Below, piece by piece: positions 46,802 through 63,042 of a stretch of 64,000 nt of DNA; position 1 is the first letter of the stretch, and the number at the start of each line of letters is the position of its first letter. Source of the DNA: a virus (lineage: Duplodnaviria; Heunggongvirae; Uroviricota; Caudoviricetes); IMG/VR virus record IMGVR_UViG_3300047274_000273, positions 55,217-119,216 of that record, one strand, 5' to 3'. The notes beneath the pieces were generated by a model. That model was given only the letters and a program-made list of their open reading frames with translations, was not told the origin of the DNA and did not search any database. Position numbers and translations under genes: made by a program.

Positions 46802-46805
46802 TATT

Positions 46806-48695
46806 ATGTCTAAGATCATCGGTATTGACCTCGGCACCACCAACTCATGCGTGGCTATCGTCGAGAACGGAACTTCCAAAGTTATTGAAAATTCAGAAGG
46901 TGCAAGAACTACACCTAGTATCGTTGCCTATGCTAATGATGAAATCCTCGTAGGCGCATCAGCCAAGCGTCAAGCAGTAACTAATCCTAAAAATACAATC
47001 TATGCGGCCAAGCGACTAATTGGTCGTAAGTTCAAAGAACAGGCTGTACAAAAAGATATCGATCTCATGCCATATGAAATCATGGAAGCCAAGAATGGCG
47101 ATGCATGGGTTAGAGCACAGGGCAAAGAACTAGCCCCTCCACAGATTTCCGCAGAAGTCCTTCGCAAGATGAAGAAGACCGCAGAAGATTATCTTGGTAC
47201 TACAGTTACTCAAGCAGTCATTACTGTTCCTGCGTACTTTAATGATCAACAACGTCAGGCGACCAAAGATGCAGGACAGATCGCAGGATTAGAAGTACTG
47301 CGTATCATCAACGAGCCAACCGCGGCCGCTCTAGCTTACGGTGTTGATAAGGAATCAAAAGGCGATCGCAAGATCGCAGTCTATGACCTAGGTGGTGGTA
47401 CATTTGACGTTTCGATTATTGAAATCGCGAATGTTGATGGTGATAAGCAAATCGAAGTATTGTCTACAAACGGTGACACTTTCCTGGGCGGTGAAGACTT
47501 TGACCAACGTATCATGGACTACTTGGTCGACGAATTCCGTAAAGAGCAGGGAGTGGATCTAACCAAGGACATGTTAGCTTTACAACGACTCAAAGATGCT
47601 GCTGAAAAAGCTAAGATTGAATTATCTAGCAGCACACAAACAGAAGTTAATCTTCCATATATCACAGCAGATGCCAACGGTCCTAAGCACTTAGTAGTCA
47701 AGTTGTCCAAAGCTAAACTAGAAAGCCTAGTTGACGATCTAATCCAACGCTCATTAGAGCCTTGCCGCATCGCTATGAAAGATGCAGGTGTTACTGCCGC
47801 TGACATCGACGAAGTTATTCTTGTTGGCGGTCAGACACGTATGCCTAAGGTACAAGAAGAAGTTGAGAAGTTATTTGGTAAAGCACCACGTAAAGATGTG
47901 AATCCAGACGAAGCAGTGGCTGCGGGCGCTGCTATCCAAGGTGCTGTTCTTGGCGGTGACCGCAATGATGTTCTATTACTAGATGTTACACCATTGAGCC
48001 TAGGTATTGAAACACTGGGCGGTGTAATGGCTAAGATCATCCAGAAGAATACAACTATTCCTACTAAGGGACAACAAACATTTTCTACAGCAGAAGATAA
48101 TCAACCTGCGGTAACTATCAAGGTTTTCCAGGGTGAACGTGAACTCTGTCAGCACAATAAGCTCTTGGGCGAATTTAATCTAGAAGGCATCGCTCCGGCA
48201 CGTCGCGGCCAGCCTCAGATCGAGGTTGCTTTTGATATCGATGCCAATGGTATCATGAATATCAGTGCCAAGGACAAGAGCACAGGTAAAGAAAATAAGA
48301 TCACTATCAAGAGCGACAGCGGTCTGAGCAAAGAACAGATCGAGCAGATGATTCGCGATGCTGAAGCTAATGCAGAAGCAGATAAGAAATCCAGAGAGCT
48401 TATTGAAGCTAAAAATCAAGCAGAGTCTACAGTTCACGAAGTGAAGCGTGATATGGAAGAACTCAAGGATGATCTCAGTGATGCCGAAAAGGCTGAAATT
48501 GAATCTGCGATCGCAGCCGTTCAAGAAGCAGCCAAGACAGACGACACAGACAAGATCAAATCCGAGCTTGAAAAAGTTTATCCGGCAATGAAAACATTGT
48601 TGGAAAAAAAGCAGGCCAAAGAGCAATCACAGGCTCAACCTGCTGGTACAGATGATAATGTAGTCGATGCTACCTTTACGGAGAAAAAAGACTAA
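46806..48695 (+). CDS. dnaK: chaperone DnaK (Hsp70)
   Basis: [21 protein letters not shown], full-length 629 aa with C-terminal lid. Confidence 0.95.
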
Positions 48696-48701
48696 TTATC
48701 A

Positions 48702-48750
48702 TGTTTAGGGGTACCTACGGGGCCCTAATTGTTCTTACTTTATAAGGAGA
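48702..48750 (+). promoter_or_regulatory. conserved heat-shock-type promoter/leader cassette upstream of hsp20
   Basis: TGTTTA-N14-GCCCTAAT-N4-CTTACTTTATAAGGAGA. Confidence 0.45.
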
Positions 48751-48755
48751 CTATT

Positions 48756-49190
48756 ATGAACAATCAACTCGCAAGACTAGATGCTCTGAACAGAGCTCTT
48801 ATTGGTTTCGACACCATGTTCGACCAAATGGAACGCCGTTTCGCTAACAGCGTTAATAATAACTATCCCCCACACAACATCCTACGTTTGGCTGACAATG
48901 AATATGCCATTCAACTGGCTGTCACGGGCTTTGATAAAAGCGAAATTTCAGTGACTATTGAAAACAACGTTCTAGTTGTCAAGGGTGAAAGCATGACCAC
49001 TGATTATGCTGCTGAACAATATCTACACCGTGGACTAGCTACCCGAGACTTTGTCAAGGAATTTTCTCTTGCAGAGCACATCGAAGTAGCAGGCGCAGAA
49101 ACTAAGAACGGTATGCTAACCATTAAGTTGATTAGAAACATTCCAGAATCTGCCAAACCGCGTGTCGTTGATATCGTAGAGGTTAAGTAA
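48756..49190 (+). CDS. small heat-shock protein (Hsp20/IbpA family)
   Basis: Alpha-crystallin domain (YAIQLAVTGFDKSEISV...LLVVKGE). Start moved to 48756 to sit behind the SD. Confidence 0.8.
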   Translation: MNNQLARLDALNRALIGFDTMFDQMERRFANSVNNNYPPHNILRLADNEYAIQLAVTGFDKSEISVTIENNVLVVKGESMTTDYAAEQYLHRGLATRDFVKEFSLAEHIEVAGAETKNGMLTIKLIRNIPESAKPRVVDIVEVK

Positions 49191-49194
49191 ATAT

Positions 49195-49216
49195 ATATGG
49201 GGGCAAAGCCCCCATA
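49195..49216 (+). terminator. GC-rich hairpin between hsp20 and clpS (possible attenuator or weak terminator)
   Basis: atgggggc-aaa-gcccccat, but with a poor U-tract. Confidence 0.35.
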
Positions 49217-49233
49217 TCATCGAAGGAGAACTT

Positions 49234-49536
49234 ATGAGCACTGAAATCCAATTTGATGAAAAGGTAAAGGTTGGTCTTCAACCGCCTAAGATGTGGAAGG
49301 TCATTTTTCTTAATGACGATCACACTCCCATGGAATTTGTCATGGAATTGCTAACTTCTATTTTCAGACACAGTGAAGAAGAAGCTAGGACGATAACTCT
49401 AGAAATCCACAATTCGGGCAGCGCAGTTGTTGGAGTTTATACTCACGAGATTGCTGAGCAGCGAGGTCTTGAATCTACACAATTAGCTAGAAGTAATGGA
49501 TTTCCGTTGAGAATCACTCTTGAACAAGAGCAATGA
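49234..49536 (+). CDS. clpS: ATP-dependent Clp protease adaptor ClpS
   Basis: PKMWKVIFLNDDHTPMEFVMELL...AEQ aligns with ClpS (P.MYKV.L.NDD.TPM.FV). Confidence 0.85.
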   Translation: MSTEIQFDEKVKVGLQPPKMWKVIFLNDDHTPMEFVMELLTSIFRHSEEEARTITLEIHNSGSAVVGVYTHEIAEQRGLESTQLARSNGFPLRITLEQEQ

Positions 49537-49793
49537 CCTTTGACGATGTAAAACTTATTAAACATCAAAGCACAGGCGCAAGAAAATTTGGTTACTGGGT
49601 TCATTTTAGAGACCAACGCCCGCATCATCTATCTGTGGGTGTAGCCGGAAAAAAATCAATCAGAAAATTTTTAGAGACAAGCCTTGGTCCTATGGGACAA
49701 AAATGGCAGTATGAAAAGTTCAATCAATTTGATTATTTTATCAAATTAGACAACGAAAAAGATCTCTTATTTCTCATCCTCAAGTTTAAGTGA
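49533..49793 (+). CDS. hypothetical protein
   Basis: ATGA overlap with the upstream gene. Confidence 0.35.
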   Translation: MTFDDVKLIKHQSTGARKFGYWVHFRDQRPHHLSVGVAGKKSIRKFLETSLGPMGQKWQYEKFNQFDYFIKLDNEKDLLFLILKFK

Positions 49794-49809
49794 TAGTAAA
49801 TAACTCACT

Positions 49810-50367
49810 ATGAATCTAAAAGAACTCACTCACGAACAACACAGAAGGGCCGAAACTCGTCCTTTTGTCAAGGTACTATTTTCAGGTAATGTAAATCCTA
49901 AGATTTATGCGACCTATCTAAAAAATCAGCATCCTATGTACGAAATCTTAGAAGTCTGTGCCATGCCGCATGGACTACTAAATGGACTATCCGAAATACG
50001 CAGAGCACCGGCGATACTCGAGGATTTCTCCGAACTATGGGGAGATTCAGATGAAAAGCCATATATGTGTCCTGTAGTAGATGATTATATCAAATACATT
50101 CTCGGTATCAAGGATAACCCAGAAAAATTAATGGCACATATCTATGTTCGTCATATGGGAGATCTCAGCGGCGGACAGATGATAGCTAAACGTGTTCCCG
50201 GTACCGGTAAGTATTATCAATTCGGCGATTCTCCGGAAAAGATCAAAGAAGCTATCAGATCAAAACTAGATGATAGTATGGCTGAAGAAGCCAAAGTCTG
50301 CTTTGATTTTGCCGCTAGATTTTTCGACGAAATGATGGAAGTGGTAAAATTATATGACACAGAGTAA
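49810..50367 (+). CDS. heme oxygenase
   Basis: LKELTHEQHRRAETRPFVK...NPKIYATYL: the heme-oxygenase N-terminal proximal helix with conserved His. Confidence 0.7.
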   Translation: MNLKELTHEQHRRAETRPFVKVLFSGNVNPKIYATYLKNQHPMYEILEVCAMPHGLLNGLSEIRRAPAILEDFSELWGDSDEKPYMCPVVDDYIKYILGIKDNPEKLMAHIYVRHMGDLSGGQMIAKRVPGTGKYYQFGDSPEKIKEAIRSKLDDSMAEEAKVCFDFAARFFDEMMEVVKLYDTE

Positions 50368-51040
50368 GGTCTGGGATACACTGATAGAAATACAAACTCT
50401 ATTAGAAGATTCTTTTAACCGCACAGGTAAAGAAGTATTCGAGCCAGGAATGGATCGTTTCAATCAGCCGGGTTGGGTAAATCGTGTCTGGACCAGTGAC
50501 AGTTATCGTAGAGCTCATATCGATGTAGTCGATGCCCGATCCACAAAGGGCCTTTGGATGATGCACTGCTGTATCTTCCCACATATCCATAACCCGGCAC
50601 CCATATTTGGTTTTGATGTTATCGCAGGTAAGAACAAAATCACAGGTTGTTTTCATGATTTTAGTCCCGCAGGTGATAGCGAGCATCACCTAATCGATTG
50701 GTTCGCAGATGAAGCCAGTAGATTAGAGTGGAATAAAACCCGTAAACTTCCCGAGTGGGCGGAGCGTATTTTTACAGGTAGTATGATAGCTGCCGGTAAT
50801 GTACAAGATGAAGCTGAACTAGAACAGCTCACAGATCTTGTAAAATTAACCACTAAAGTCTATCTACAGCACGTGGGCGATACGAATCATACTGCAAAGA
50901 ATACTACCTTTAATCAAAATTTCTACGCCCAAAATCAAAAAATGAATCCTCATACTCCTAAAGTAATGGCTAGCCTAGGCCTGAACGAAGAGGATGTACA
51001 GGTGTTTATACAGGATTGTCTGTTCCCAGAGATCCGATAA
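50354..51040 (+). CDS. ferredoxin-dependent bilin reductase (PcyA/PebS/PcyX family)
   Basis: FDBR family layout with central GFDVIAG and conserved His/Asp positions (HIDVVDA, HDFSPAGD). Overlaps the ho gene by 14 nt. Confidence 0.7.
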   Translation: MTQSKVWDTLIEIQTLLEDSFNRTGKEVFEPGMDRFNQPGWVNRVWTSDSYRRAHIDVVDARSTKGLWMMHCCIFPHIHNPAPIFGFDVIAGKNKITGCFHDFSPAGDSEHHLIDWFADEASRLEWNKTRKLPEWAERIFTGSMIAAGNVQDEAELEQLTDLVKLTTKVYLQHVGDTNHTAKNTTFNQNFYAQNQKMNPHTPKVMASLGLNEEDVQVFIQDCLFPEIR

Positions 51041-51050
51041 ATACTCTGTT

Positions 51051-52427
51051 ATGAGATTTTTTGAATTTAATCTACACGAGTCATCTAGAGGAATCCTATT
51101 TCGTACAGTAGGAGATCCCTTTAAATCCACTGCGGACCCTAATAAAACACTGACCTATGCAGGATCGCAGACATTTCCCGCCCCAGTTCCGGGCCAAGGT
51201 GCAGCTCAATTTCCCGATCCTGAAACATTTAATCAAGAAGTCGCTGCTGCTGAAAAAAAGTTTCCGGGGATCACATGGACTAATAAATCAAATGCTTCGA
51301 TGCGAGCATTTGCTGTGGTTACCTTAGACGATCCTGTCGCAAAGAAGAAGGTACATTTTGGTAGATTTTTCAAAGAAATATCACCGGACATGGCAGGTAA
51401 ATGGAAAAATGACGGTATACCCGGATATAGTCTAGAAATTAAATCTTCAAAGAAATCTAGATCGGGTCTTAAGCCCAACGATCTAATTCCATTAGGGCAG
51501 CAATTTCCAAACCCACAGGCACTTATAGAAGCTCTAAAACCAGATTTAGATCCTGCTATCAAAGCAGGATTGACAATGATAGTTGAAAAGAAACTACCAG
51601 TGTTTAATGTTGATGCTAGCATGGAAGCAGCTATTAGAGATGACCTAGGGGAAATAATCGCTCCCATGGCACTATGGCAAGGCATGATATCTGCAGAAGC
51701 AGAGTCAGCTAGAAAGTTTTTGTTGAAAACAACACCATGGAGTGCCTGTGCTATAACATTTTCATCAACTAAGAATGCAGGCTTGATTGATAGCTATGTT
51801 AAACCTCCAAAAGGCGTAGCTGTTGGTATTTCTAGTAAGGGTGCAGAAGGAGCTAAGGCATCTGCATCGAACATATGGGCAGGTGTTGAATTGCTACGTT
51901 CTACAGGACAACAAGATGTTGTCGATCAATACCCAGAAGCTGTTCATGTATTAGAAATGATCAAGCGAGAATCTCAATACCGAGGACCTATGGTACTAGG
52001 TACAGAATATGGTTTTCTTACTGGTCAAGACGAAACATTGATCAACCAGGCAATCAAGCAGGGAATGCAAAAACTACCTCCAGGACCAGAATGGGAAAAC
52101 ATAGGTGCATTAATGAAAAAATTTGCTCCTAGAGACATGTCTAAATCTAACTATAACATAGGGTATCATGCTCTTGCCGGATTGGCAAAAATGGTACAAG
52201 AAAAAGTCAACAGTAGTGTTCCAAAGTTTAGTGAAGCGTGTATAACATTCCTAAATAGTTCTCCATTATTACAGATACATCTGTATACCAAAGCATCCGG
52301 TAATACTGTTTCAGTAACCGGTTTCAAAACAATATGGCCTCCACAGTTCAAAGGATCCGTATCTCTCAATGCCGGCAAGAGTTATTATGCTACCGGTGTC
52401 ATAAACAAGTTCGCGTTTAGTTGGTAG
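51051..52427 (+). CDS. hypothetical protein with MRFFEF N-terminus
   Basis: Start chosen at ATGAGATTTTTTGAATTT, identical to the start of the ORF at 21901. Confidence 0.4.
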   Translation: MRFFEFNLHESSRGILFRTVGDPFKSTADPNKTLTYAGSQTFPAPVPGQGAAQFPDPETFNQEVAAAEKKFPGITWTNKSNASMRAFAVVTLDDPVAKKKVHFGRFFKEISPDMAGKWKNDGIPGYSLEIKSSKKSRSGLKPNDLIPLGQQFPNPQALIEALKPDLDPAIKAGLTMIVEKKLPVFNVDASMEAAIRDDLGEIIAPMALWQGMISAEAESARKFLLKTTPWSACAITFSSTKNAGLIDSYVKPPKGVAVGISSKGAEGAKASASNIWAGVELLRSTGQQDVVDQYPEAVHVLEMIKRESQYRGPMVLGTEYGFLTGQDETLINQAIKQGMQKLPPGPEWENIGALMKKFAPRDMSKSNYNIGYHALAGLAKMVQEKVNSSVPKFSEACITFLNSSPLLQIHLYTKASGNTVSVTGFKTIWPPQFKGSVSLNAGKSYYATGVINKFAFSW

Positions 52428-52497
52428 TCTATATCTAGTGTTATAATTTTTTCAACCCGCTCAGTAAATACTAATACCGTTTACCGGGAGCGAAAAG

Positions 52498-52953
52498 ATG
52501 AAAAAATTGATAGCTGTGGCCATGGTTGCCTCTATGGCCGTTTCTGCACACGGAGCAGAAATAGTACATCAGTTCAATAGCCCTTCTTTTTCTGGAATAG
52601 GCTTCTCTAGTCATACGTTGACAATCTATTCCCAGGAACTAAGTAGAAAATTAGCTATTGCCGCTGAAAAAAAGGCAGAAGAGTTAAAAGCAGAGCAAGA
52701 TGCTAAAAATACCACACAGGCCAAGTTTATTGCGAACTTAGAAAGTAGGGTATACAACGAACTTGCACGTCAAATCACAGAAAAACTGTTCGAAGGAACA
52801 GGCACACAAGTCACTGGAACCTTCGCGTTCAACGGTGGCACCATTCGTTATACAAAAACAGGTAACGAAATAACCATAACAATAACAGGTGCAGACGGAA
52901 GTGTAACTACCATGACTGTGCCAGTAGGAGACTTCGGATGGCTAGCACCTTAA
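52498..52953 (+). CDS. csgF: CsgF-like curli assembly protein
   Basis: Signal peptide; mature N-terminus IVHQFNSPSFSG versus E. coli CsgF TMTFQFRNPNFGG; similar length. Confidence 0.55.
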   Translation: MKKLIAVAMVASMAVSAHGAEIVHQFNSPSFSGIGFSSHTLTIYSQELSRKLAIAAEKKAEELKAEQDAKNTTQAKFIANLESRVYNELARQITEKLFEGTGTQVTGTFAFNGGTIRYTKTGNEITITITGADGSVTTMTVPVGDFGWLAP

Positions 52954-54149
52954 TGAAACTTACACCGATAGCACTGGCTATCACACTAACTGGCTGTGGA
53001 ACAATAGGCAATGCTGTCCGATCATTTGACGAGCCTACTGTAACTAAACCTACACTAAAAGTAGAATCAACCTTAAAAGAACCGGCTGCTGGGGCTATCG
53101 CCATAGCTGTCTACAACTTCCGTGATATGACTGGCCAGCGTAAGGCCAGCCAAAACATTGCCAGCCTTAGTTCGGCTGTAACACAAGGTGCAGATGCTTA
53201 CCTTGTTAAGAGCCTACAAGAAGTAGGTGGCGGTCGTTGGTTCAAAGTATTAGAAAGAGGTGGATTAGATAATCTGGTCAAAGAACGTCAGCTTATCCGT
53301 CAAATGCGCGAACTGTATCAAGGTAAAGATGCACAGCCTTTACCTCCTATGCTGTTCGCTGGAATCATATTAGAAGGCGGTATTATCGGCTATGATTCTA
53401 ACACAATGAGCGGCGGATCCGGTGCTAGATTCCTAGGCATTGGCGCTTCTACAGAATATCGACAGGACGAAGTTACTATCAGCCTACGAGCAGTTTCAGT
53501 AGCCACTGGAGAAGTTCTAGTGACTGTGAACACAAACAAAAAAGTCTACAGTTTTCAAGACAAGCTAGGAGTTTTGCGTTTTGTAGATGCCGGAACACAA
53601 GCACTGGAGTTAGAAACAGGTTCTGCTACTAACGAATCTATGAACAAAGCGGTACAATTAGCCATACATGCTGCGGTCATAGAACTTATTAACTCTGGAG
53701 CAGGAAAAGGTCATTGGGCATTTAAATCCGATGTTGCTGCGGCACCTCAGCCAAGACCAGAACCTGTGGTTGTAAAAGAGGAGGAGGTAAAGAAAGATGA
53801 GTTGGTTCAAAAGGACTCCGCACCTAAAGAAGAAAAAATTGAAGCACCTGCGACACCCGCAGTACCACAACCCGATGACAGAAAAACTGTTACAGAAGAG
53901 CCAGCAAGAACAGAATCAAAAAACACAGACACAAACACAGTAATAACCGTGCAGCCTAAAGTTACTTTAGGAAATGTCACAGATTGGGTAAACGTAAGAA
54001 AAGAACGCGATATAAACAGCGAAAAGTTAGCCAATCTTAGGCCTGGAACGCAAGTAGAAGTACTTGATACTAAAGGCGATCACTACGTTGTTAGAGTCAA
54101 CGGAAAGGAAGGTTATGTAGTAAGAAAATTTATTAAGGTACAAAAATAA
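52938..54149 (+). CDS. csgG: CsgG-like curli secretion channel lipoprotein with C-terminal SH3b domain
   Basis: Lipobox LTGCG. IAVYNFRDMTGQ, LERGGLDNLVKERQLIR, GGIIGYDSNTMSGGSGARFLGIGAS and ISLRAVSVATGEVL align with E. coli CsgG. C-terminal VNVRKERD...GTQVEVL...YVVR is SH3_3-like. Confidence 0.8.
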   Translation: MASTLMKLTPIALAITLTGCGTIGNAVRSFDEPTVTKPTLKVESTLKEPAAGAIAIAVYNFRDMTGQRKASQNIASLSSAVTQGADAYLVKSLQEVGGGRWFKVLERGGLDNLVKERQLIRQMRELYQGKDAQPLPPMLFAGIILEGGIIGYDSNTMSGGSGARFLGIGASTEYRQDEVTISLRAVSVATGEVLVTVNTNKKVYSFQDKLGVLRFVDAGTQALELETGSATNESMNKAVQLAIHAAVIELINSGAGKGHWAFKSDVAAAPQPRPEPVVVKEEEVKKDELVQKDSAPKEEKIEAPATPAVPQPDDRKTVTEEPARTESKNTDTNTVITVQPKVTLGNVTDWVNVRKERDINSEKLANLRPGTQVEVLDTKGDHYVVRVNGKEGYVVRKFIKVQK

Positions 54150-54176
54150 CAATAACAGTACCACGGAGCGAAGAAA

Positions 54177-54860
54177 ATGATCAAAAATAATTATAAAATG
54201 GCTTTCATTATGGCGGCCATATTTGCCGGTTCAGGATCAGTTCAGGCAAACAACGGAGTCTATATTGAACAAGTAGGTTCCACAAACACAGTTACTATCA
54301 CTCAAATAGGCGCTAATAATAGAGTGGGTAACAGCGGTTTAAATCAACAGAGTAAAATTACAGGCAGCAACAACACATTGACTGCTAGCCAAACAGGCGA
54401 CGGAAATATCATAGACTACACAGTAATAGGCAGCGGCAACACTATTACTAAAACTGTAGCAGGAGATACCAATCAAATCACCTTTATCTGCGGCGATGGA
54501 ACAACCAGCTGTAGTAATGTGACCAGCACCATGACACTCACTGGTAATCAAAATACTGTTACTAGTACGATCAAAGGTTCTTCGATCACTAACATGTTGT
54601 CTATCACCGGTGACAGCAATACTGTAACACAGACTATCACTACCAACAATAGCACTAGTTCTATTACTATCCTAGGCGACAGTAATACCTTTACTAGTTC
54701 GATGACTGGTGCCAGCGCAGGCGCAGGACATCATTTGCTGGCGTCTGTTACAGGTACCAGCAATACCCATACTATTACACAGAGCGGTACCGTGAATACC
54801 ACGGTTAATGTTACCACCAATGGTAACAGCAATAATGTAACTGTAAGTACTGGAAACTAA
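54177..54860 (+). CDS. curlin-repeat protein (CsgA/CsgB-like amyloid subunit candidate)
   Basis: Signal peptide, then repeats of T-x-T-Q-x-G-x-x-N type (VTITQIGANN, LTASQTGDGN, HTITQSGTVN). Confidence 0.55.
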   Translation: MIKNNYKMAFIMAAIFAGSGSVQANNGVYIEQVGSTNTVTITQIGANNRVGNSGLNQQSKITGSNNTLTASQTGDGNIIDYTVIGSGNTITKTVAGDTNQITFICGDGTTSCSNVTSTMTLTGNQNTVTSTIKGSSITNMLSITGDSNTVTQTITTNNSTSSITILGDSNTFTSSMTGASAGAGHHLLASVTGTSNTHTITQSGTVNTTVNVTTNGNSNNVTVSTGN

Positions 54861-55939
54861 TGAAATATGCATGGCTACTATTGACCGTATTTGCCCTGGA
54901 CGCTAATGCCGCAATTGGCACGATGAGCGAAGTCCAGGGCACAGCCATTGAAATCAAAAGAAACAAATCTGCCATCGTAGGCAAAACAAATTCAGAAGTA
55001 GAATCTATGGATGCAGTAACCGTAGGTTCAAAATCACAGGTCGGAATTATTTTCAAAGATAGTACCAAAGTAAAGATCACAGAAAATTCTAGACTGGTCA
55101 TAGACGATTTCGTCTTCGACCCTAAGAAATCAGATGCTGGTAAACTAGGCATGAAAGTGGCTCTAGGCACCGTACGTTACGCATCTGGGCAGGTAGCTAA
55201 AAATAATCCTCAAAATGTAAACATAAAAACCCCTACAGCTTCTATCGCTGTACGTGGAACAGACTTTGCCATGACTGTAGATGAAGTTGGACGTAGTCTT
55301 GTTGTATTGTTACCTAGCTGCGATGATCCCACCAAACTAAACAACTACCAGATACAAGGTAACTGCGTGGTAGGGGCTATCGATGTTATTACAGATGCAG
55401 GTCTAGTCAGCCTCAATCAAGCCTATACAGCGACTTATGTAACTGATGCACAACAGCCTCCACTGCCCCCAGTAAAGGTCGATCCTGTGGCTGTTAGCAA
55501 TGACAGCAATCTTAAAAAACCGGAAAACATCGCTCGGGCAGAAACTGATAGAGAAGAGAAGAAAGACGCAGCAAGAGATAAATCAAAGTTCGGTGATGAC
55601 GAACGTAAAAAGGCCGGCGAATCTAATGAAAGATCTCTGTCGGAAAAGAAAGCTCAAGAAGAAGAAGGTACGAAACTCATAGGATTGAATGGTAATAATA
55701 ATGGTGCATTAGGTAATCCTGCATCTAATCCCTGTTGGCCTTTCAATGACTGTGGTAATGAAAAAGGACTGAACTGGTACTATCGCAAAGATGACGATCG
55801 CGGCAATACTATCTTTATTAGGTCCGGAGAAAAGTTCGATAATACTACCTATAATATTTCTATCAACAGCAACGACATAGAAACTCGCGTCAACGGAGAT
55901 GGCAGTAATAAAGTTACAGTAAGGATATGGAACAAATGA
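54860..55939 (+). CDS. secreted FecR-domain protein
   Basis: Signal peptide; IAVRGTDFAMTV FecR-like core. Confidence 0.45.
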   Translation: MKYAWLLLTVFALDANAAIGTMSEVQGTAIEIKRNKSAIVGKTNSEVESMDAVTVGSKSQVGIIFKDSTKVKITENSRLVIDDFVFDPKKSDAGKLGMKVALGTVRYASGQVAKNNPQNVNIKTPTASIAVRGTDFAMTVDEVGRSLVVLLPSCDDPTKLNNYQIQGNCVVGAIDVITDAGLVSLNQAYTATYVTDAQQPPLPPVKVDPVAVSNDSNLKKPENIARAETDREEKKDAARDKSKFGDDERKKAGESNERSLSEKKAQEEEGTKLIGLNGNNNGALGNPASNPCWPFNDCGNEKGLNWYYRKDDDRGNTIFIRSGEKFDNTTYNISINSNDIETRVNGDGSNKVTVRIWNK

Positions 55940-57858
55940 GAAATCTGTTGATTTTTTTGTTCGGTGTTATGTCTGTATTGAATTCTGCGATAGCTAATGC
56001 TAACTACGGATTTGAAGGCGGCCTAGGAGCTGAATGGCAGATCGGAGGTACTACCGGCACACAATCTGCAACTGCCTGGAATGATACAGGAGTTGGTGTA
56101 AGTATAGTTACTGGTGTTACAAACTACAGTCCTGGCGGTGGTAATACTTGGAACATAACTCCCTATGGTACTAAAATGGCCAGTATACAAGGCGGTGGTT
56201 TAGCCTTTGATCAGATCACTTCGGGACTAGGGCTGTCGGGAGTAGAGAACACTGCGATCAAAAATATGTTGACCTATCAGTCACAGAATGGTGGCGGTGG
56301 CAATCCAACACCTACCACAGGTTCCTATATGAAACGGGAAGTCACACTGCAAGCAGGTCAGACCTATACCATGGCCTGGCAGTATCTTTCCACAGACTAT
56401 ACTCCGTTCAATGATGGTTCTATCATGACTTTGGTTCATAGCAGTGACGGAAACATTACTCCTACACTAAACAATAAACAACAGAGATATTCTTTACTAG
56501 GTTTTACCAATCCCGGAACGGGTAACTATGCCACAGGCAGCTACGGTGCCACAGGTTGGCAGGTAGCTACATTTACTGTGCCGGTGTCGGGCACATATGT
56601 TCTAGGTTTTACATCATTTAACCTAGGTGATACAGCATTGAGTCCTATCCTACTAGTTGACGAAGTACAGGGAACAACTACACTAAACGGACAGACATTT
56701 ACTCCAGTTAATCCTAATCCGGGATCAGATGCACCTCCACCTCCTACACCGTCTGTGCCCACAGCCGTGTATAACTCGGGCATCAGTCAAAATGTTTGGA
56801 TAACTAATCACTATCCTACATCAAATAATTCACCTGCAGGAGAAGGTGCTGCTAATGCCTTTGACAATAATCCCGATACCAAATATTTGAACTTTGATAA
56901 GAAGAATGCAGGTGTTACGGTCAAACTAAACGTTGGTAAAGTCATAACAGGATTTACATTGACCACTGCCAACGACTTTCCGGGACGAGATCCAACCAGT
57001 TACAAACTATATGCGTCTAACGACGGCGTCACTTGGACACTGATCAGTGAAGGTAGTCTTTCATTGACTGACAGTAGAAAAACAACCAGCAGTATGATCT
57101 CAGTGACCAATACCAACCCTTATGTCTACTACTACATTTTCTTTCCTACAACCAAAGCAGGTGAGGGTTGCGGATTAAACTGTGACAGTATGCAGATCGC
57201 TGAAATCACTTTTTATTACGAATCTGGTAATACAGCAACTTCAACTGCCACAGGATCGGGATCGGTGTCAAACCCTAGTGATCTTTGTTGCGGCGGAGTT
57301 AGCACTCCATTCAATGCTAACACAGGATTCGCTACTAGAGCAGGAGTATTTTCTGCCGCAGGAGACAGCCGTGTTATCATAGAACAGATAGGTAACTATA
57401 ACACAGCTAACATTACACAGTCAGGCAGCAAAAACTATCTCGAAGCTAATTTCACAGGCAACAATAACTCATTGACTGCTAATCAAACTACTGCTAACTC
57501 GTCTACAAACTACACAGAGTTAAACGTTACAGGAAACAGTAATACTCTTAACATCACACAGAATAATACAGGTGGTTCCAAAGGCATAATGGCTACTGTG
57601 GATAATTCTTCTAACTCTGTAACTGTTAATCAATCTGGTACGGGCAATCATTATTCAGAAATAAACCTCACTGGTGGTAACAAGACCGTGAATGTAACAC
57701 AGAGTGGATCAGCAGCACACATGGCCAAGATTGAACTCAGCGGTGGTGCTACATCGATCACTACCACACAGACTGGTGCTACACAGCAGCACTATTCAAT
57801 CACTCATAACTGCGCTCAAGCTAGTTGTGCAGCAATCACTGTAACACAAGGGCAATAA
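55927..57858 (+). CDS. large secreted protein: F5/8-type-C (discoidin) domain fused to C-terminal curlin repeats
   Basis: Signal peptide; AFDNNPDTKYLNF...YKLYASNDGVTWTLI discoidin-like segment; C-terminal approximately 200 aa of ITQSGSKN / VNQSGTGN / VTQSGSAA repeats. Confidence 0.55.
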   Translation: MEQMRNLLIFLFGVMSVLNSAIANANYGFEGGLGAEWQIGGTTGTQSATAWNDTGVGVSIVTGVTNYSPGGGNTWNITPYGTKMASIQGGGLAFDQITSGLGLSGVENTAIKNMLTYQSQNGGGGNPTPTTGSYMKREVTLQAGQTYTMAWQYLSTDYTPFNDGSIMTLVHSSDGNITPTLNNKQQRYSLLGFTNPGTGNYATGSYGATGWQVATFTVPVSGTYVLGFTSFNLGDTALSPILLVDEVQGTTTLNGQTFTPVNPNPGSDAPPPPTPSVPTAVYNSGISQNVWITNHYPTSNNSPAGEGAANAFDNNPDTKYLNFDKKNAGVTVKLNVGKVITGFTLTTANDFPGRDPTSYKLYASNDGVTWTLISEGSLSLTDSRKTTSSMISVTNTNPYVYYYIFFPTTKAGEGCGLNCDSMQIAEITFYYESGNTATSTATGSGSVSNPSDLCCGGVSTPFNANTGFATRAGVFSAAGDSRVIIEQIGNYNTANITQSGSKNYLEANFTGNNNSLTANQTTANSSTNYTELNVTGNSNTLNITQNNTGGSKGIMATVDNSSNSVTVNQSGTGNHYSEINLTGGNKTVNVTQSGSAAHMAKIELSGGATSITTTQTGATQQHYSITHNCAQASCAAITVTQGQ

Positions 57859-57974
57859 TCCTCTAACTAAATAGCTGTGTTTTTTTAAGGACAAGCTATG
57901 ATTTTAGAAATAATGATGTGGGGATTTTTCTCTGCGTGGGGCTGGTTTGGTGCTAGTTATATCAAAGATAAAGT

Positions 57975-58283
57975 TTGGCCCGAAACTCCCCCGGCACAGT
58001 CACAGCCCGAAACGCAACACAGAAAAGACAGCTGATGTTAACATATCTTATAACTTTTATTGCGATTTTTGTAACAGATATAATTTATGTTTGTTTTGTA
58101 AATTCTATACAACAAAATCAACCAATGACTGCTAGCTTCTGGTCGGCGTTCGTTACCTTCACCGCCAGTATCGCAGTGATTAATTATACCCAGGATAACT
58201 GGGCATTGATACCTGCGTTACTGGGCGCATTCTGCGGAACCTATGCAGGCATGCTTATAAAGGATAGGATTAAAACTAAATAG
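57975..58283 (+). CDS. small membrane protein
   Basis: Three hydrophobic spans. Confidence 0.35.
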   Translation: MARNSPGTVTARNATQKRQLMLTYLITFIAIFVTDIIYVCFVNSIQQNQPMTASFWSAFVTFTASIAVINYTQDNWALIPALLGAFCGTYAGMLIKDRIKTK

Positions 58284-58301
58284 TGTTTTAAGGAGTGAGC
58301 C

Positions 58302-58598
58302 ATGCGTTTTTTAACCGTGGCGTTCCTATTCTGCCTATCCGGCACCGTAGCCAACGCCCAGCCATTTGAGAGCCGTAAACCTGTGCTCTGCGATGATACC
58401 AAAACTCTAATCAAGAGCCTTACGGAAAACTATAACGAAAAACCCATTTGGACAGCTCGCAATCCCGTAGACCATACAAGATTTGGGTTATTCGTTAATT
58501 CTAAAACCGGATCTTGGACACTTTTACAAATGACTCCGGACATAGCCTGTATTCTCGGCGTTGGCGAAGAATCTAGTTCGATTGGCGATTCGACCTAA
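58302..58598 (+). CDS. small secreted protein
   Basis: Signal peptide MRFLTVAFLFCLSGTVANA. Confidence 0.4.
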   Translation: MRFLTVAFLFCLSGTVANAQPFESRKPVLCDDTKTLIKSLTENYNEKPIWTARNPVDHTRFGLFVNSKTGSWTLLQMTPDIACILGVGEESSSIGDST

Positions 58599-58733
58599 AA
58601 AGAAATTTCTTATGTAGGTGTAGTCTTGTCTTGTTGTATTGAACAGCAATAACGACTAATGCATCTAATCAAGGTAGTGTTTTTGCTACCAATAGTGCCA
58701 TACCTGCCCACTATGCATTTAGTTAAATATAAA

Positions 58734-60788
58734 ATGATGAAAAAAATACTTTTAAGTCCTTGGACTGCCTTGATCACATTAGTACTTGTTACAAGTATAA
58801 GAATAGCCGATCCTGTACTTGTAGAAAGTATAAGATTACGTTATTTCGACACGCTGATCACTAGTAAAGCACCTACAGAAAATAACATCGTTACTGTAAA
58901 CATAGATGAGTCGGCCTTAGAGAAATACGGCCAGTGGCCATTTAAGCGAGACATTTATGCCGATCTAATCGAAGATCTTTATAAAAGAAAAGCAGGTCTA
59001 GTAGTTTTCAACGTGCTGATGACCGAACCAGATCGACAAGGTGGTGACGGAGCTCTAGCAGCCACACTTAATGAGTTTCCTGTGGTGTTGCCTAACATGC
59101 CCGCAGATCGAAATAAAAATATGCCTCGACAACCAGGTACGGCTGTGATAGGTGCAGACTTCCAGGATATGATAGTGCAGTATCCCGGTATCATAGCTAA
59201 TGTTCCGGATTTAGAAAGCAGAGCAGTAGGAGTAGGTACGGTCAACACACTACCAGAAGTAGATGGAGTTAATCGTCGCATGCCACTGATAGTGTCTGTC
59301 GACGGCAAAGTATATCCTAGCCTATCTATGGAGATACTAAGAGTGGCATCTGGGGATACTACTACACAGATCAAACTGTTTGAAGGTGGTGTTGAAAAGA
59401 TGCGTATACCTGCCTACGGTCCTGTGTCTACAGATCCTCTAGGCCGTGTGTGGATTGATTGGAGCCAGAAGAGTCGCTCAGTGTCTATGACAGATCTTCC
59501 TAAAGACTTAAATGGTGCTGTAGTTATCGTAGGAGTAGCCGCAGCCGGTCTAGGTAATCCTGTGCCCACAGCAGTCGGCAGCATATGGCCGCACGAAGCA
59601 CAGGCTGCGGTAGTTGGAACGATGTTCAACAATGTCACTATTCAACGCCCTGATTATGCCGACGGTGCTGAAATCTTAACACTGGCTCTAGCAGGTATAT
59701 TATTGATATTTTTAACGAGGTATGTATATGCAGGTTTGGCAACGACGATTATTCTTATCTCTGGCACTGCTGTTGGCAGTTGGATTGTGTTCGATCTCTA
59801 TCTATGGTTATTTGACGCTACTGCCCCTGGAGTTGGCCTACTCATGGTCGCTCTGCATGCCTATGGCGTCAAGTTTGTAAGTGAGTTCTTACAGAAGCAG
59901 GCAATCAAGAAACAGTTCGCTGGCTACTGCTCACCTGAAGTTGTTAGACTTCTACAAGAAAATCCAGACTTAATCAAGAAAGGTGTTAAGAAAGATGTGT
60001 CAGTTATGTTCAGTGACCTGCGTGGATTTACTCCTATCGGTGAACACTTTGACAAGCCAGGCAATGGCGGGCCTGAAGGTCTGGCCAAGTATATGAACGG
60101 ATATATGGATGCTATTACTATTCCTATCATTGATGCCAACGGTATGGTGCTCAAGTATGTAGGTGATGCATCAATGCACATACATGGTGCTCCTTTAGAA
60201 GATCCTAACCATGCACATACTATTGTAAGGGTAGGACTAGAGATGTTAGATCGAGTAGACGCTTATACAAAAGAAATGGAAGCAAAAGGTCTACCACCTG
60301 CCGCAATGGGGTGGGGTTGCAATACAGGAGACGGATATATCGGTGAGATGGGATCAACTGCAAGACACGGCTACGACATCCTAGGTGATATGGTTTCAAC
60401 TGCGGCTCGTCTAGAAGCACGTTGTAAGGCCTACGGTGTGTTGTGTATCATTGGTGCTGAAACTTATAAGCGTACCAAGGATGATTTCTTTTATTTGCTA
60501 CTAGACAACCTACAACCAAAAGGTAAGAGTGTAGCAGATCTGATCTATACTGTGTTGCGCACTCATGGTGAAGATTATACAAAAGATCGAGAACAACATG
60601 ATAGGATGCATGCCTTGTACAAGGCCAAGAAGTTTGACGAAGCAGCCGCTATGTGCGAAAAACTAAAGGGTAACTTCGGTGGACAAATGGACAAGTACTA
60701 CGATATCTGGATTGACCGTTGTAGTTTTATGAAACAGCAAGATCTAGGCGATAATTGGAATGGCGAATTTATCGCCCACGAAAAATGA
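58734..60788 (+). CDS. CHASE2-sensor membrane class III adenylate/guanylate cyclase
   Basis: CHASE2 segment (IVTVNIDESALEKYGQWPFKRDIYADLIEDL...VVFNVLMTEPD), TM cluster, then CYCc domain (VSVMFSDLRGFTP, KYVGDASM, MVSTAARLE). Confidence 0.7.
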   Translation: MMKKILLSPWTALITLVLVTSIRIADPVLVESIRLRYFDTLITSKAPTENNIVTVNIDESALEKYGQWPFKRDIYADLIEDLYKRKAGLVVFNVLMTEPDRQGGDGALAATLNEFPVVLPNMPADRNKNMPRQPGTAVIGADFQDMIVQYPGIIANVPDLESRAVGVGTVNTLPEVDGVNRRMPLIVSVDGKVYPSLSMEILRVASGDTTTQIKLFEGGVEKMRIPAYGPVSTDPLGRVWIDWSQKSRSVSMTDLPKDLNGAVVIVGVAAAGLGNPVPTAVGSIWPHEAQAAVVGTMFNNVTIQRPDYADGAEILTLALAGILLIFLTRYVYAGLATTIILISGTAVGSWIVFDLYLWLFDATAPGVGLLMVALHAYGVKFVSEFLQKQAIKKQFAGYCSPEVVRLLQENPDLIKKGVKKDVSVMFSDLRGFTPIGEHFDKPGNGGPEGLAKYMNGYMDAITIPIIDANGMVLKYVGDASMHIHGAPLEDPNHAHTIVRVGLEMLDRVDAYTKEMEAKGLPPAAMGWGCNTGDGYIGEMGSTARHGYDILGDMVSTAARLEARCKAYGVLCIIGAETYKRTKDDFFYLLLDNLQPKGKSVADLIYTVLRTHGEDYTKDREQHDRMHALYKAKKFDEAAAMCEKLKGNFGGQMDKYYDIWIDRCSFMKQQDLGDNWNGEFIAHEK

Positions 60789-60939
60789 TGTATACTCCAC
60801 TGGATTGGTGGTTTGACTATTCTGTATGGTTGATGCTACAATATAAGTTTATATATCCAGCTAAGTTGATCAGTGTCAACGAAGACATGGAAAACTTCTT
60901 AAAACAATTTAGTCTTAACGGAATCAAAACCGTTAACAT

Positions 60940-61659
60940 TTGCAGACCATGGTAAAAATAACTTTATTTCTATTTACGATATTGTTATCAGTACAGAGCT
61001 ATGCTAAAGATATCACTGCTACAGCTTGGTTAGTAGCCAACGGTGATGGGGATATCATTCAGAGTGAAAACATGCATGAACGCAGAAGCATAGCCAGTAT
61101 TACAAAACTGATGACTGTCATGGTGGTACTTGATGCTCATCAAGATCTAGATCAATACTTCCGACCCTATACTAGAAAAGAACTGATACAACTGGCTATC
61201 GTTCATTCTGATAATAGAGCTTCGGAAAAACTGTGCAATCATTATCCGGGAGGAAGACCCGCCTGTGTCTCGGCTATGAATGCTAAGGCCAGATATCTGG
61301 GCATGATTGATACCAACTTTGTCGACCCCACTGGTCTGGGAGTAATGAATTCTAGCACAGCCTACGATCTAATTAAATTGGTCAGAGCAGCAGAGCATTA
61401 TAGTGAAATCGTAGAAGCCAGCAATATGTCTGCGGTTAAGATACAGAACAAGAAAAAATTCCTAGTGTTTAAGAATACTAATCCGTTAGTCGCTCAAAAT
61501 GATTTTATCATTAGCAAAACTGGTTATATCAGAGCATCAGGGGGCTGTATAGTTATGATGCTAGATACAAAAATAGGACGACGCATAGTCGTCCTATTGA
61601 ATTCAAAGAATACTAGAACTCGTATTCCTGAAGCCTATAAGCTAGCCAGTAGCTATTAA
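60940..61659 (+). CDS. secreted D-alanyl-D-alanine carboxypeptidase/endopeptidase (peptidase S11, PBP7-like)
   Basis: Signal peptide; SIASITK (SxxK), HSDN (SxN), SKTGY (KTG). Confidence 0.65.
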   Translation: MQTMVKITLFLFTILLSVQSYAKDITATAWLVANGDGDIIQSENMHERRSIASITKLMTVMVVLDAHQDLDQYFRPYTRKELIQLAIVHSDNRASEKLCNHYPGGRPACVSAMNAKARYLGMIDTNFVDPTGLGVMNSSTAYDLIKLVRAAEHYSEIVEASNMSAVKIQNKKKFLVFKNTNPLVAQNDFIISKTGYIRASGGCIVMMLDTKIGRRIVVLLNSKNTRTRIPEAYKLASSY

Positions 61660-62000
61660 CCTTCTCCGCTGGCCGCTGACTTTTTATCATCTATGTGAGC
61701 AGCTTCGTCAAATTTTTGATTGGCTTCTTTGTCTACCTTGACCTGTTCAAGCACACGTTCGCTTTCAATAATCTTGCCTCTTAGATGCAGAGTAGTATTA
61801 ACCTTCTGTTGAAGCCTTATAAGATCATTATCAAGCATACGAATACGATCAATAAGCGCGATTAAGGTAGTATTAGCTTCGCTGAGCACAGGTTTGATTT
61901 CAGTAGTGGCCCACTTCCATACGTAGAAAATAAGATATCCCATACCGCCGGCAGCGACGATAGGAAAACCGTATTTGTTAACTAATTCTACTGGATCCAT
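61656..62000 (-). CDS. single-TM coiled-coil protein, paralog of the ORF at 62761..63042
   Basis: YGFPIVAAGGMGYLIFYV TM, then a coiled coil. Confidence 0.4.
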   Translation of the reverse strand: MDPVELVNKYGFPIVAAGGMGYLIFYVWKWATTEIKPVLSEANTTLIALIDRIRMLDNDLIRLQQKVNTTLHLRGKIIESERVLEQVKVDKEANQKFDEAAHIDDKKSAASGEG

Positions 62001-62009
62001 TTATTTCTC

Positions 62010-62225
62010 CTAGATATTGTTGAATGGTGTATTTGGATTTTTTTTCACGGGTTTTTCTTTGGCTTTGTCGTGATAATAATTCCATGCACTCATTGACTGC
62101 CTTTTTTTAGTATCATTAAGTTCTTTTTCTATCTCTTTATAAGACATACAGGCATAGACGGCAAATACCAGAGCGATCGTAGCCAAAATGTAAGTTATTC
62201 CGAATAATATGATCGTCGAGTCCAT
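62010..62225 (-). CDS. small N-terminal-TM protein
   Basis: ORF only. Confidence 0.3.
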   Translation of the reverse strand: MDSTIILFGITYILATIALVFAVYACMSYKEIEKELNDTKKRQSMSAWNYYHDKAKEKPVKKNPNTPFNNI

Positions 62226-62461
62226 TATCCGATCAAAGGTCTAAAAGATTGTTCAACTGGTCTCCATGCCCATTCATAGCCTACTACGAGACCAACTAAA
62301 AATCCTATGACCACTCCTATGGCTAGAGATTTATACAAATCTTTGTCGCGCCAAACCGGTTGCTCCTTGATATACTTCTGCATCTGTGGAGATAAAGAAT
62401 CCCACCATACTTCATACTTGTTCATTTTTTTCCGCTCCTTTGAGTATGAACTGCTGTACAT
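62225..62461 (-). CDS. small C-terminal-TM protein
   Basis: ORF only. Confidence 0.3.
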   Translation of the reverse strand: MYSSSYSKERKKMNKYEVWWDSLSPQMQKYIKEQPVWRDKDLYKSLAIGVVIGFLVGLVVGYEWAWRPVEQSFRPLIG

Positions 62462-62642: not shown

Positions 62643-62760
62643 ATTTTCCTAGGTTGCATTTTGGGTTCGTGATAATAGTATAATGCTGCTCCAACCAATA
62701 CCAAGCATTCGAGGAGATAAAAAACCAAAAAGGATTCGAACAGCAGGCTAAGTTCCATGC

Positions 62761-63042
62761 TTAATCTCTTCTAGCATCATTCTTTCCATCTGCACGAGCG
62801 ATACGTTCTACATCGGGTCTAAGACCCAATGCATTCGAAACCACTGTGTCGATTCGAATCACATCGTGATTCATGGTTTTGACTCTGTTATCCAATGCAC
62901 CAATGATACCTTTGATACCATTAACACTAGATGTAACACCAGCCAAAATAAATTTGAGCGTTAGGAATACGAAGTATCCTGCTCCCATTGCAGCCGCGAT
63001 TGGAAATCCCAATTCCGCGACCAGTTTGAAAAAATCTCCCAT
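62761..63042 (-). CDS. single-TM coiled-coil protein, paralog of the ORF at 61656..62000
   Basis: LGFPIAAAMGAGYFVF TM; ALDNRVKTMNHDVIRI parallels LIDRIRMLDNDLIRL in the paralog. Confidence 0.4.
   Translation of the reverse strand: MGDFFKLVAELGFPIAAAMGAGYFVFLTLKFILAGVTSSVNGIKGIIGALDNRVKTMNHDVIRIDTVVSNALGLRPDVERIARADGKNDARRD

Follow-up and report, generated by a model that had tools for sequence, protein, structure and literature searches.

The stretch of DNA studied here (hereafter the window) comprises 64,000 nucleotides (nt) of an uncultured virus of the Caudoviricetes, taken from IMG/VR record IMGVR_UViG_3300047274_000273, positions 55,217 to 119,216. At positions 52498-57858 of the window, five co-directional open reading frames (ORFs) on the plus strand encode relatives of the proteins of the curli, or type VIII, secretion system (T8SS): a CsgF, a CsgG channel lipoprotein fused to an SH3b domain, a curlin-repeat protein, a secreted FecR-domain protein and a discoidin-curlin protein. 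An original prediction, made from the sequence alone, had placed these five genes here, and Pfam searches returned matches for all of the identities that it had named (CsgF, CsgG, curlin, FecR, discoidin and SH3). The boundary that it drew was too tight, however, since the last conserved gene of the module, encoding a CHASE2-cyclase, lies beyond 57858, at 58659-60788. The best explanation for the locus, and one that we hold with moderate confidence, is a virus-encoded type VIII (curli) secretion module that produces adhesive fibres. The genes in question are the following:

52498..52953, plus strand: csgF, 151 amino acids (aa); Pfam CsgF (PF10614)
52938..54149, plus strand: csgG, 403 aa; Pfam CsgG (PF03783) and SH3_3 (PF08239)
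54177..54860, plus strand: predicted curlin-repeat fibre subunit with signal peptide, 227 aa; Curlin_rpt (PF07012)
54860..55939, plus strand: secreted FecR-domain protein, 359 aa; Pfam FecR (PF04773)
55927..57858, plus strand: predicted lectin-curlin chimera, second fibre subunit, 643 aa; F5_F8_type_C (PF00754) and Curlin_rpt
57975..58283, plus strand: small predicted membrane protein, 102 aa from a TTG start (shorter with a later ATG); two hydrophobic 19-mers
58302..58598, plus strand: conserved small secreted protein, 98 aa; two invariant Cys
58659..60788, plus strand: CHASE2 sensor fused to a class III nucleotidyl (adenylate-type) cyclase, membrane protein; CHASE2 and Guanylate_cyc

The full conserved module consists of csgF, csgG, the curlin subunit, the FecR protein, the second curlin subunit, the small secreted protein and the CHASE2-cyclase, and its genes form a single operon. 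The genes csgF and csgG overlap by 16 nt, the start codon of the FecR gene overlaps the stop codon of the curlin gene by 1 nt, and the FecR gene shares 13 nt with the gene of the 643-aa protein. Shine-Dalgarno-like sequences are found ahead of most module genes, while a scan for promoters and terminators gave sites no more numerous than in shuffled sequence. A signal-peptide-like N-terminus is present in all five products of 52498-57858 as well as in the 58302-58598 protein. That CsgE, CsgC and CsgD are absent from the cluster, as had been noted from the start, was borne out by the lack of any Pfam match of these types among all ORFs of at least 60 aa within 50994-63983; the remaining window was not scanned exhaustively for them. 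The Pfam gathering scores against which the matches below are to be read are 20.7 bits for Curlin_rpt, 20.8 for CsgG, 25.8 for CsgF, 28.2 for F5_F8_type_C and 27 for SH3_3.

The csgF product matches its Pfam family over profile positions 2-132 of 132 (E 6.8e-16, 59.1 bits) and the PHROGs family phrog_35372 (E 1.7e-35), and it is 39% identical to the CsgF of phage HTVC008M. Its signal peptide is followed by the N-terminal motif HQFNSPSFSG, a helical middle part and a beta-rich C-terminus. F26, P29, G33 and G35 are invariant among 11 viral CsgFs, and a profile made from these 11 sequences aligns the motif to the N-terminus of E. coli CsgF, FQFRNPNFGG (PDB 6l7a), with a weak match (E 0.3). A phmmer search of the PDB with the window CsgF as the lone query gave no CsgF match.

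The CsgG assignment covers profile positions 6-207 of 210 (E 6.4e-52, 176.4 bits). The alignment to E. coli CsgG that had been claimed was recovered over the whole core (PDB 3x2r, E 6e-47), with the lipobox LTGC in register with the Cys of LSGC. The protein is made up of the core (aa 1-265; 52938-53732), a Pro/Glu/Lys-rich linker (aa 266-340) and an SH3b domain (aa 351-399; 53988-54134), the last matching SH3_3 (E 9.5e-11, 42.2 bits) and PDB 2kt8 (E 9e-4). The identity of 48% to the CsgG of HTVC008M is restricted to aa 8-263. We found the fusion of CsgG with SH3_3 in dozens of 90%-identity metagenome clusters, 60-87% identical to the window CsgG, and it is widespread in metagenomes. Among close relatives, the CsgG tails are 268-412 aa long and SH3 is present or absent. 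By its domain content, the tail of the window CsgG is a likely peptidoglycan anchor.

The first candidate substrate of this channel, the 227-aa protein, is rich in Thr, Asn, Ser and Gly and has 12 G-x-x-N-x-hydrophobic turns with an 11/22-residue period; self-similarity was found at shifts of 11 (z 6.6) and 22 residues (z 5.8). It scores 24.2 bits against Curlin_rpt, a small margin over the gathering score. Moreover, it is homologous to the 'curlin-associated protein' of HTVC008M, to the 'curlin associated repeat protein' of phage Melnitz and to curlin-like genes adjoining bacterial csgG.

In the 643-aa protein, a signal peptide is followed by a beta-sandwich domain (aa 30-255; 56014-56691), a discoidin/CBM32 domain (aa 299-440; 56821-57246; F5_F8_type_C, E 1.4e-10, 41.8 bits) and six curlin repeats of 21-25 aa at aa 481-620 (57367-57786), which have the form x-x-x-h-x-h-x-G-x-x-N-x-h-x-h-x-Q-x-G. 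These C-terminal repeats, already proposed in the original prediction, were confirmed in several ways. Curlin_rpt was not reported in the Pfam scan of the complete protein, but the C-terminal 198 aa scanned alone reached 23.5 bits, again a small margin. Shifting the sequence against itself by 23 or 47 residues gave significant similarity (z 4.3 and 5.9), and the Q/N/G ladder is invariant over 65 homologues. An AlphaFold2 model made with the alignment of these 65 homologues shows two beta-sandwich domains and a solenoid, with 12 regular strands at aa 481-616 and a predicted local distance difference test (pLDDT) of ~80-90 for the domains. The predicted template modelling score (pTM) of the whole is low (0.43) because the domains are flexibly linked, and therefore the per-domain confidence alone is usable. 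A Foldseek search with the modelled discoidin domain returned galactose-binding CBM32 modules (2bzd, 4lks and galactose oxidase; E 1e-5 to 1e-3), so that by Pfam and fold match this head is predicted to bind sugars. The C-terminus is 39% identical to the second curlin protein of HTVC008M.

The heads of the second subunit vary. Across more than 100 homologue clusters the N-terminal part is a discoidin domain, PA14 with GLEYA, another beta-sandwich or nothing at all, and the window protein has two heads. The cultured pelagiphage HTVC008M likewise carries a lectin-type head: its second subunit, AGE60352 (L001 10638-11963), which is annotated in GenBank as 'hypothetical protein', matches PA14 with 27.7 bits (threshold 24) and Curlin_rpt with 33.1 bits. 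Joining a lectin to curlin is therefore a feature of the module already known, though it has passed without comment. From the domains that it combines, the second fibre subunit is a predicted lectin-amyloid chimera with exchangeable heads. Such heads favour an adhesive-fibre function; conserved substrates together with lectin heads are what an adhesive fibre would need and a bare pore would not. Both this chimera and the CsgG-SH3b fusion had been called unusual at the outset. The architectures are real, but their supposed rarity did not stand, as they are common in metagenomes and PA14-curlin occurs in HTVC008M; they are simply not mentioned in the three papers on the viral module. SH3 is not mentioned in PMC7029224, PMC9004378 and PMC9599517, and the words lectin, discoidin and PA14 are absent from the same papers, as are carbohydrate and adhesin from PMC9599517, the one paper searched for these two. 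Literature searches for natural lectin-curlin fusions gave nothing relevant.

The FecR protein (Pfam E 1.3e-10; phrog_37870, E 4e-70) is 42% identical to the product of an HTVC008M gene and 36% identical to the 'FecR domain protein' of Melnitz, each at the same position. The same is true of the cyclase (CHASE2, E 1.4e-39; Guanylate_cyc, E 5.4e-13; phrog_35576, E 7e-185), with 36% identity to HTVC008M and 45% to Melnitz. Hydrophobic, membrane-type segments lie on both sides of its CHASE2 domain, and translation probably begins at an internal Met around aa 26. By inspection of the catalytic motifs, the metal Asp residues (FSDLRGFT, VGD), the adenine-specifying Lys/Asp pair (KYVGD, YDILG) and the Arg are all present. 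Of the two small genes that precede the cyclase gene, the one for the 98-aa protein stands between the second curlin gene and the cyclase gene in most relatives. The 57975-58283 protein, which has no Pfam or PHROG family, has copies (76-78% identical) in L010, L011 and L013 only, among the relatives; the membership of its gene in the module is therefore uncertain.

The 'BiofilmReg' operon of Burkholderia, for which a biofilm phenotype was described, also encodes a membrane CHASE2 sensor with a secreted FecR-domain protein as its neighbour (PMC5192318). The likeness is at the level of shared domains, and the Burkholderia operon differs in its histidine kinase/response regulator output, in the LysM on its FecR protein and in having no curli genes (PMC5192318). 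Because of this same pairing, we read the secreted FecR-domain protein and the periplasmic CHASE2 as probably forming a sensing pair that would set a cyclic-nucleotide output. It has also been discussed that an ungated CsgG channel might serve as an outer-membrane conduit for nutrients or cofactors, e.g. iron chelates, with FecR as the sensor (PMC7029224, PMC9599517). The lack of a detectable CsgE and the presence of a FecR-domain protein and a sensor cyclase would suit such a conduit. Nevertheless, we regard it as very unlikely here, as it leaves CsgF, the two curlin subunits and the lectin heads unexplained. Moreover, the protein that contains the FecR domain is secreted, the locus has neither an anti-sigma nor a TonB-box partner for it, and the FecR/CHASE2 pairing matches a biofilm operon and not an iron-uptake operon.

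Phage-borne curli machinery had been taken for something not yet described, which turned out to be mistaken: the operon is known from marine phages of SAR11 and OM43. Zaragoza-Solas 2020 reported a curli cluster of pelagimyophages consisting of CsgF, CsgG, a 'curli-associated protein' and two hypothetical proteins, and proposed a role in uptake or 'sibling capture' (PMC7029224). For Melnitz, a phage of OM43, Buchholz 2022 described these genes as well, with models of CsgG and CsgF, and put forward a pore for lysis timing (PMC9004378). The module of Wittmers 2022 comprises CsgF, CsgG, CsgA/B, FecR and an adenylate cyclase, often joined by a further CsgA/B, and lacks CsgE and CsgD. It was found in podo- and myo-pelagiphages and at all 65 GOV2.0 stations, where it makes up ~0.1% of assembled viral proteins, and it is expressed in metatranscriptomes; an alphaproteobacterial origin was inferred and cross-lineage transfer of the module was proposed (PMC9599517). 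The roles put forward there, aggregation/'sibling capture' and superinfection exclusion, are the same as those in the original prediction.

In the GenBank records of Pelagibacter phage HTVC008M (KC465899) and Methylophilales phage Melnitz (MZ577097), csgF, csgG and the curlin-repeat genes are annotated in the order seen in the window, and each module position from csgF to the cyclase was matched by tblastn in both phages with 31-48% identity. CsgF, CsgG, the cyclase and the FecR protein each have a PHROGs family already. When 29 CsgG cores were placed in a neighbour-joining tree, all 15 of viral origin (the window lineage, a second IMG/VR group, HTVC008M and Melnitz) came out as one split in 99 of 100 bootstraps, with an alphaproteobacterial group as sister; the tree is distance-based with limited sampling, and the bootstraps refer to unrooted splits. 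The E. coli outgroup sequence agrees with the 3x2r alignment. The shared gene order and the viral CsgG split therefore make the window module a member of the known viral system and not a new kind.

The genome around it is another matter. HTVC008M homologues were found for 14 of the 95 window ORFs, six of which are the module and two are linked small genes, and therefore the module sits in a different phage genome. This different backbone fits the cross-lineage transfer proposed in PMC9599517. What the window shares with HTVC008M and Melnitz is the gene order, the lack of CsgE, CsgC and CsgD, a CsgG of the viral clade and two linked genes for small membrane proteins. The window CsgG, on the other hand, has 403 aa with a 75-residue linker and SH3b, compared to 280 aa in HTVC008M and 278 aa in Melnitz, and its second subunit has 643 aa and two heads, compared to 341-441 aa. 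The conserved 98-aa secreted protein is additional to the HTVC008M/Melnitz module. The flanks differ too, with heme oxygenase and bilin reductase genes upstream and a Peptidase_S11 gene downstream in the window, and the window relatives lie on contigs of 285-351 kb with a backbone unlike that of HTVC008M. In the podophage form of the module, a histidine kinase gene is found directly upstream of csgF, which is not the case in the window, HTVC008M and Melnitz. The module itself is thus known, whereas neither the fusion of SH3b to CsgG nor the lectin head on a curlin subunit is taken up in the literature searched.

Compared to the enterobacterial curli system (csgBAC-csgDEFG), the phage module has the same CsgG core with lipobox, a CsgF whose Pfam match extends over the whole profile and whose N-terminus retains the docking motif, and substrates of 21-25-aa curlin repeats with a Q/N/G ladder. 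The enterobacterial system has the CsgE gate, the CsgC chaperone and the CsgD regulator, none of which was found in the phage module, whereas the phage module adds FecR, cyclase, SH3b and lectin heads and is one operon instead of two divergent ones. Closer to it are loci of alphaproteobacterial type, which have csgG/csgF and curlin-repeat genes without csgC, csgD and csgE; their CsgG is sister to the viral CsgGs and curlin-like genes lie near csgG. The identity to these loci is at most 50%, and in the 13 bacterial loci retrieved no homologues of the viral FecR, cyclase and SH3b were detectable. A further parallel comes from protein engineering. Engineered CsgA fusions are artificial and usually carry small domains at the C-terminus, while the phage chimera is natural, with ~450 aa of non-curlin sequence at the N-terminus. 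In both cases a folded binding domain is attached to curlin repeats; display constructs such as nanobody-CsgA (PMC9477280) are exported via CsgG and decorate the fibres.

The viral nature of the window is apparent from its gene content. It has 95 non-overlapping ORFs, 82 of them on one strand, with a coding density of 93%. One product matches phrog_1645 (E 8.5e-108), a structural component of the virion, and is 50% identical to one of the virion proteins of the T4-like cyanophage S-RIM32, and there are a second virion-protein match, a tail-spike-like pectate-lyase protein and a DUF6267 protein. Phage auxiliary genes encode ribonucleotide reductase, ribosomal protein S21, GMP reductase, Hsp70, Hsp20, ClpS, heme oxygenase and a PcyA-like bilin reductase, and two tRNAs and a permuted transfer-messenger RNA (tmRNA) are present. 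The exact window CsgG was found on metagenome contigs with identical neighbours, the exact 643-aa protein on a 178-kb Joint Genome Institute (JGI) contig, and relatives of the module on 15 IMG/VR viral contigs; on contigs of 285, 325 and 351 kb the local gene order is unchanged. Within the 64-kb window we identified neither a terminase nor a major capsid gene, and the viral assignment therefore rests on the virion proteins, the gene packing and the IMG/VR relatives. The carrier is an uncultured large myovirus-like phage, its large ('jumbo') genome size being inferred from the relatives only.

The absence of terminase and capsid genes, and the fact that contigs of 325-351 kb with CsgG relatives could in principle be bacterial, might point to a piece of host chromosome or a degraded prophage island. 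We consider this extremely improbable, and the phage context assumed in the original prediction was upheld. The 325-351-kb contigs share the phage-like neighbourhood, and virion proteins, dense one-strand genes, tRNAs with a permuted tmRNA and 15 IMG/VR contigs all speak for a virus. Furthermore, no homologue of more than 50% identity was found in one genome each of 185,579 bacterial and archaeal species, where core matches reached at most 50%; this GTDB scan, queried with the exact query peptides, shows the absence of close relatives and is not a census of bacterial CsgG. A megablast of window positions 1-57858 against 50,697 GenBank phage records gave no match, and the phage is therefore not a deposited genome; its relatives were found by protein search. 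Literature searches for jumbo phages with curli gave nothing relevant.

How the module might work can be outlined from its parts. During infection, the host Sec system would export all structural products, as suggested by the signal peptides and the CsgG lipobox. CsgG would be lipidated, sorted to the outer membrane and assembled into an oligomeric channel. In E. coli CsgG both termini are periplasmic, and therefore the linker and SH3b should reach into the periplasm and the peptidoglycan layer, where SH3b probably tethers the channel to peptidoglycan. By analogy with the bacterial system, CsgF would dock in the barrel via its conserved F-x-x-P-x-F-x-G N-terminus, and the 227-aa curlin protein and the 643-aa chimera would cross the channel unfolded and polymerise outside as beta-solenoid amyloid fibres. 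The chimera would supply glycan-binding heads (CBM32/discoidin and the second beta-sandwich) to the fibres or to their cell-proximal ends, and such heads would therefore make the infected cell sticky for particular sugars. Most likely, infected cells benefit the phage by adhering to or aggregating with neighbours or particles, so that the progeny would find more hosts at hand; alternatively, the coat of fibres may hinder competing phages.

We rank fibre production first because models of a pore alone leave the two curlin subunits, the CsgF docking motif and the exchangeable lectin heads unexplained. Several points nevertheless weigh against it. The constriction residues of E. coli CsgG, Y51, N55 and F56 in its structure, are S/S/L in the window CsgG, where the loop is one residue longer. 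The phage proteins score far below the enterobacterial equivalog cut-offs: CsgG reaches 171.7 bits with NCBIfam NF011731 (cut-off 505), the 643-aa protein ~21 bits with the CsgA/CsgB models (cut-offs 160-165), and the 227-aa protein has no match to the latter. They are therefore members of the Pfam families and cannot be called CsgA or CsgB. As the Curlin_rpt scores are only 3-4 bits over the cut-off, it is the repeats, the homology and the model together that make the case. Natural curlin subunits are much smaller than the 643-aa chimera, and the passage of 620 residues, two folded domains among them, through a channel of ~1 nm is unproven. CsgE was not found in the module, and the 98-aa protein, which showed no likeness to CsgE, CsgC or CsgH even when folds were compared, is no recognisable substitute. 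The cyclase has Ser (MVSTAAR) where the canonical transition-state Asn sits, so that its activity is uncertain. Finally, no phage T8SS is known to have given fibres in an experiment, and Melnitz-infected cells showed no clumping (Buchholz 2022, PMC9004378).

The genes that follow the module bear on a further explanation. They are:

60940..61659, plus strand: secreted D-Ala-D-Ala carboxypeptidase; Peptidase_S11, E 2.5e-39
61656..62000, minus strand: small membrane/coiled-coil protein, 114 aa; paralogue of 62761-63042, with homologues in HTVC008M and Melnitz
62761..63042, minus strand: small membrane protein, 93 aa; paralogue of 61656-62000, hydrophobic segment at aa 11-33

The Peptidase_S11 gene stands right after the cyclase gene and beside the module in nine related loci (37-100% identity). 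It is not part of the pelagiphage module and adjoins the module in the lineage of the window only; it may be an accessory gene and may be linked to cell-wall remodelling around the SH3b-anchored channel. The 61656-62000 protein is 52% identical to the product of HTVC008M gene 7181-7462 and 39% identical to that of the Melnitz gene directly upstream of csgF, and the 62761-63042 protein is 52% identical to that of HTVC008M gene 6900-7181 and 60% identical to that of a Melnitz gene upstream of csgF. The two HTVC008M homologues are hypothetical genes directly upstream of csgF. Neither window protein received a family assignment, Pfam search included. As their homologues lie just upstream of csgF in HTVC008M and Melnitz, three phage lineages show a link between these small genes and the module.

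Upstream of the module, ORF 50994-52427 (plus strand, 458-477 aa) lies between the bilin reductase gene and csgF. We considered it as a counterpart of the podophage-type histidine kinase before csgF and rejected it, since it has no Pfam or PHROG match and a positional homologue only in L015, which is 30% identical. A signal-peptide feature was not found in it either.

Small membrane proteins that travel with the module in three lineages could be lysis-related, and a peptidoglycan carboxypeptidase gene is adjacent. Together with the constriction residues unlike those of E. coli, this would agree with the hypothesis raised by Buchholz 2022 for Melnitz, in which CsgG and CsgF are repurposed as a pinholin-like or secretin-like pore for lysis timing, with no amyloid export and the other genes being incidental. 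For Melnitz it was based on modelled differences in the phage CsgF, on the missing clumping in cultures and on a host without curli genes (PMC9004378). For the window module we consider such a pore unlikely. The two curlin substrates have invariant Q/N/G ladders and their order is kept in every complete module examined, the CsgG lipobox directs the protein to the outer membrane, whereas pinholins act in the inner one, CsgF has kept its docking motif, and lectin heads that are maintained and exchanged would serve no need of a lysis pore.

If fibres are made, they may still serve another purpose than aggregation, namely superinfection exclusion, where a coat of fibres and lectins masks or occupies the receptor glycans of competing phages. 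This role, too, was proposed in PMC9599517. The lectin heads could bind the surface polysaccharide of the infected cell itself, heads differ between close relatives, as expected when variable surface glycans are tracked, and the window contains glycosyltransferase and sugar epimerase genes. The diversity of heads is, however, equally expected for adhesion to varied external targets. We judge superinfection exclusion as the main purpose to be rather unlikely, although both it and aggregation remain candidate benefits of the adhesive fibres.

Some further features of the window deserve mention. A GT4 glycosyltransferase (12151-13161), a nucleotide-sugar epimerase-like protein (2418-3281) and the pectate-lyase-fold tail-spike-like protein (23035-24624) are all encoded on the plus strand. 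They point to a phage that can alter surface polysaccharide as well as recognise it, with a possible relation to the lectin heads. Directly upstream of the module, a host-like gene block at 44800-51040 (plus strand) is conserved in relatives and also encodes ribosomal protein S21, an Rv2179c-like exonuclease, Hsp20 and ClpS, besides the following:

45066-46100, plus strand: GMP reductase/IMPDH-family protein, host-like block
46806-48695, plus strand: Hsp70/DnaK, full-length, Pfam E 1e-256
49810-50367, plus strand: heme oxygenase, host-like block
50354-51040, plus strand: PcyA-like ferredoxin-dependent bilin reductase, host-like block

The last two, the bilin gene pair, suggest a phage pigment pathway of the PcyX type. 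An AhpC/TSA peroxiredoxin gene followed by a gene of the carboxymuconolactone-decarboxylase family (AhpD-like) is found at 37107-38164 (plus strand); relative L005, a contig of 325 kb, has this gene pair close to the module.

The tmRNA at 36528-36898 (plus strand) is of the permuted two-piece type (RF04321, 138 bits; RF01850, 134 bits), and ARAGORN gave the tag peptide ANAANDEVYALAA. Melnitz has a two-piece ssrA as well, reported together with a glutamine riboswitch (PMC9004378); no riboswitch at the Rfam gathering score was found in the window. One tRNA, at 34102-34177 (plus strand), has the anticodon CTA and is thus of the amber-suppressor type (ARAGORN tRNA-Pyl; Rfam tRNA, 59 bits). TAG is the stop codon in 10 of the 95 ORFs, and therefore there is no wholesale recoding; the CTA tRNA might allow read-through of selected genes.

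Taken further, the viral T8SS may be a programmable adhesin, a tentative proposal in which an amyloid stalk of the small subunit would be decorated or nucleated by the chimera with its swappable heads, the channel would, in the window lineage, also be pinned to the cell wall by nine SH3b domains, and FecR and the CHASE2-cyclase would report the state of the envelope or of secretion by cyclic AMP. Phage curli genes are abundant in the ocean, and opinions on their function differ: aggregation by fibres, a pore for lysis and a channel for uptake have all been put forward. Our data add the module in a second phage backbone with a larger genome and a channel with a likely peptidoglycan anchor. The lectin-amyloid chimera, present across more than 100 homologue clusters and in HTVC008M, argues from sequence alone for an adhesive fibre. 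If this is true, infection would turn planktonic cells into sticky cells specific for certain glycans, which would favour adhesion and 'sibling capture' over models of a pore alone.

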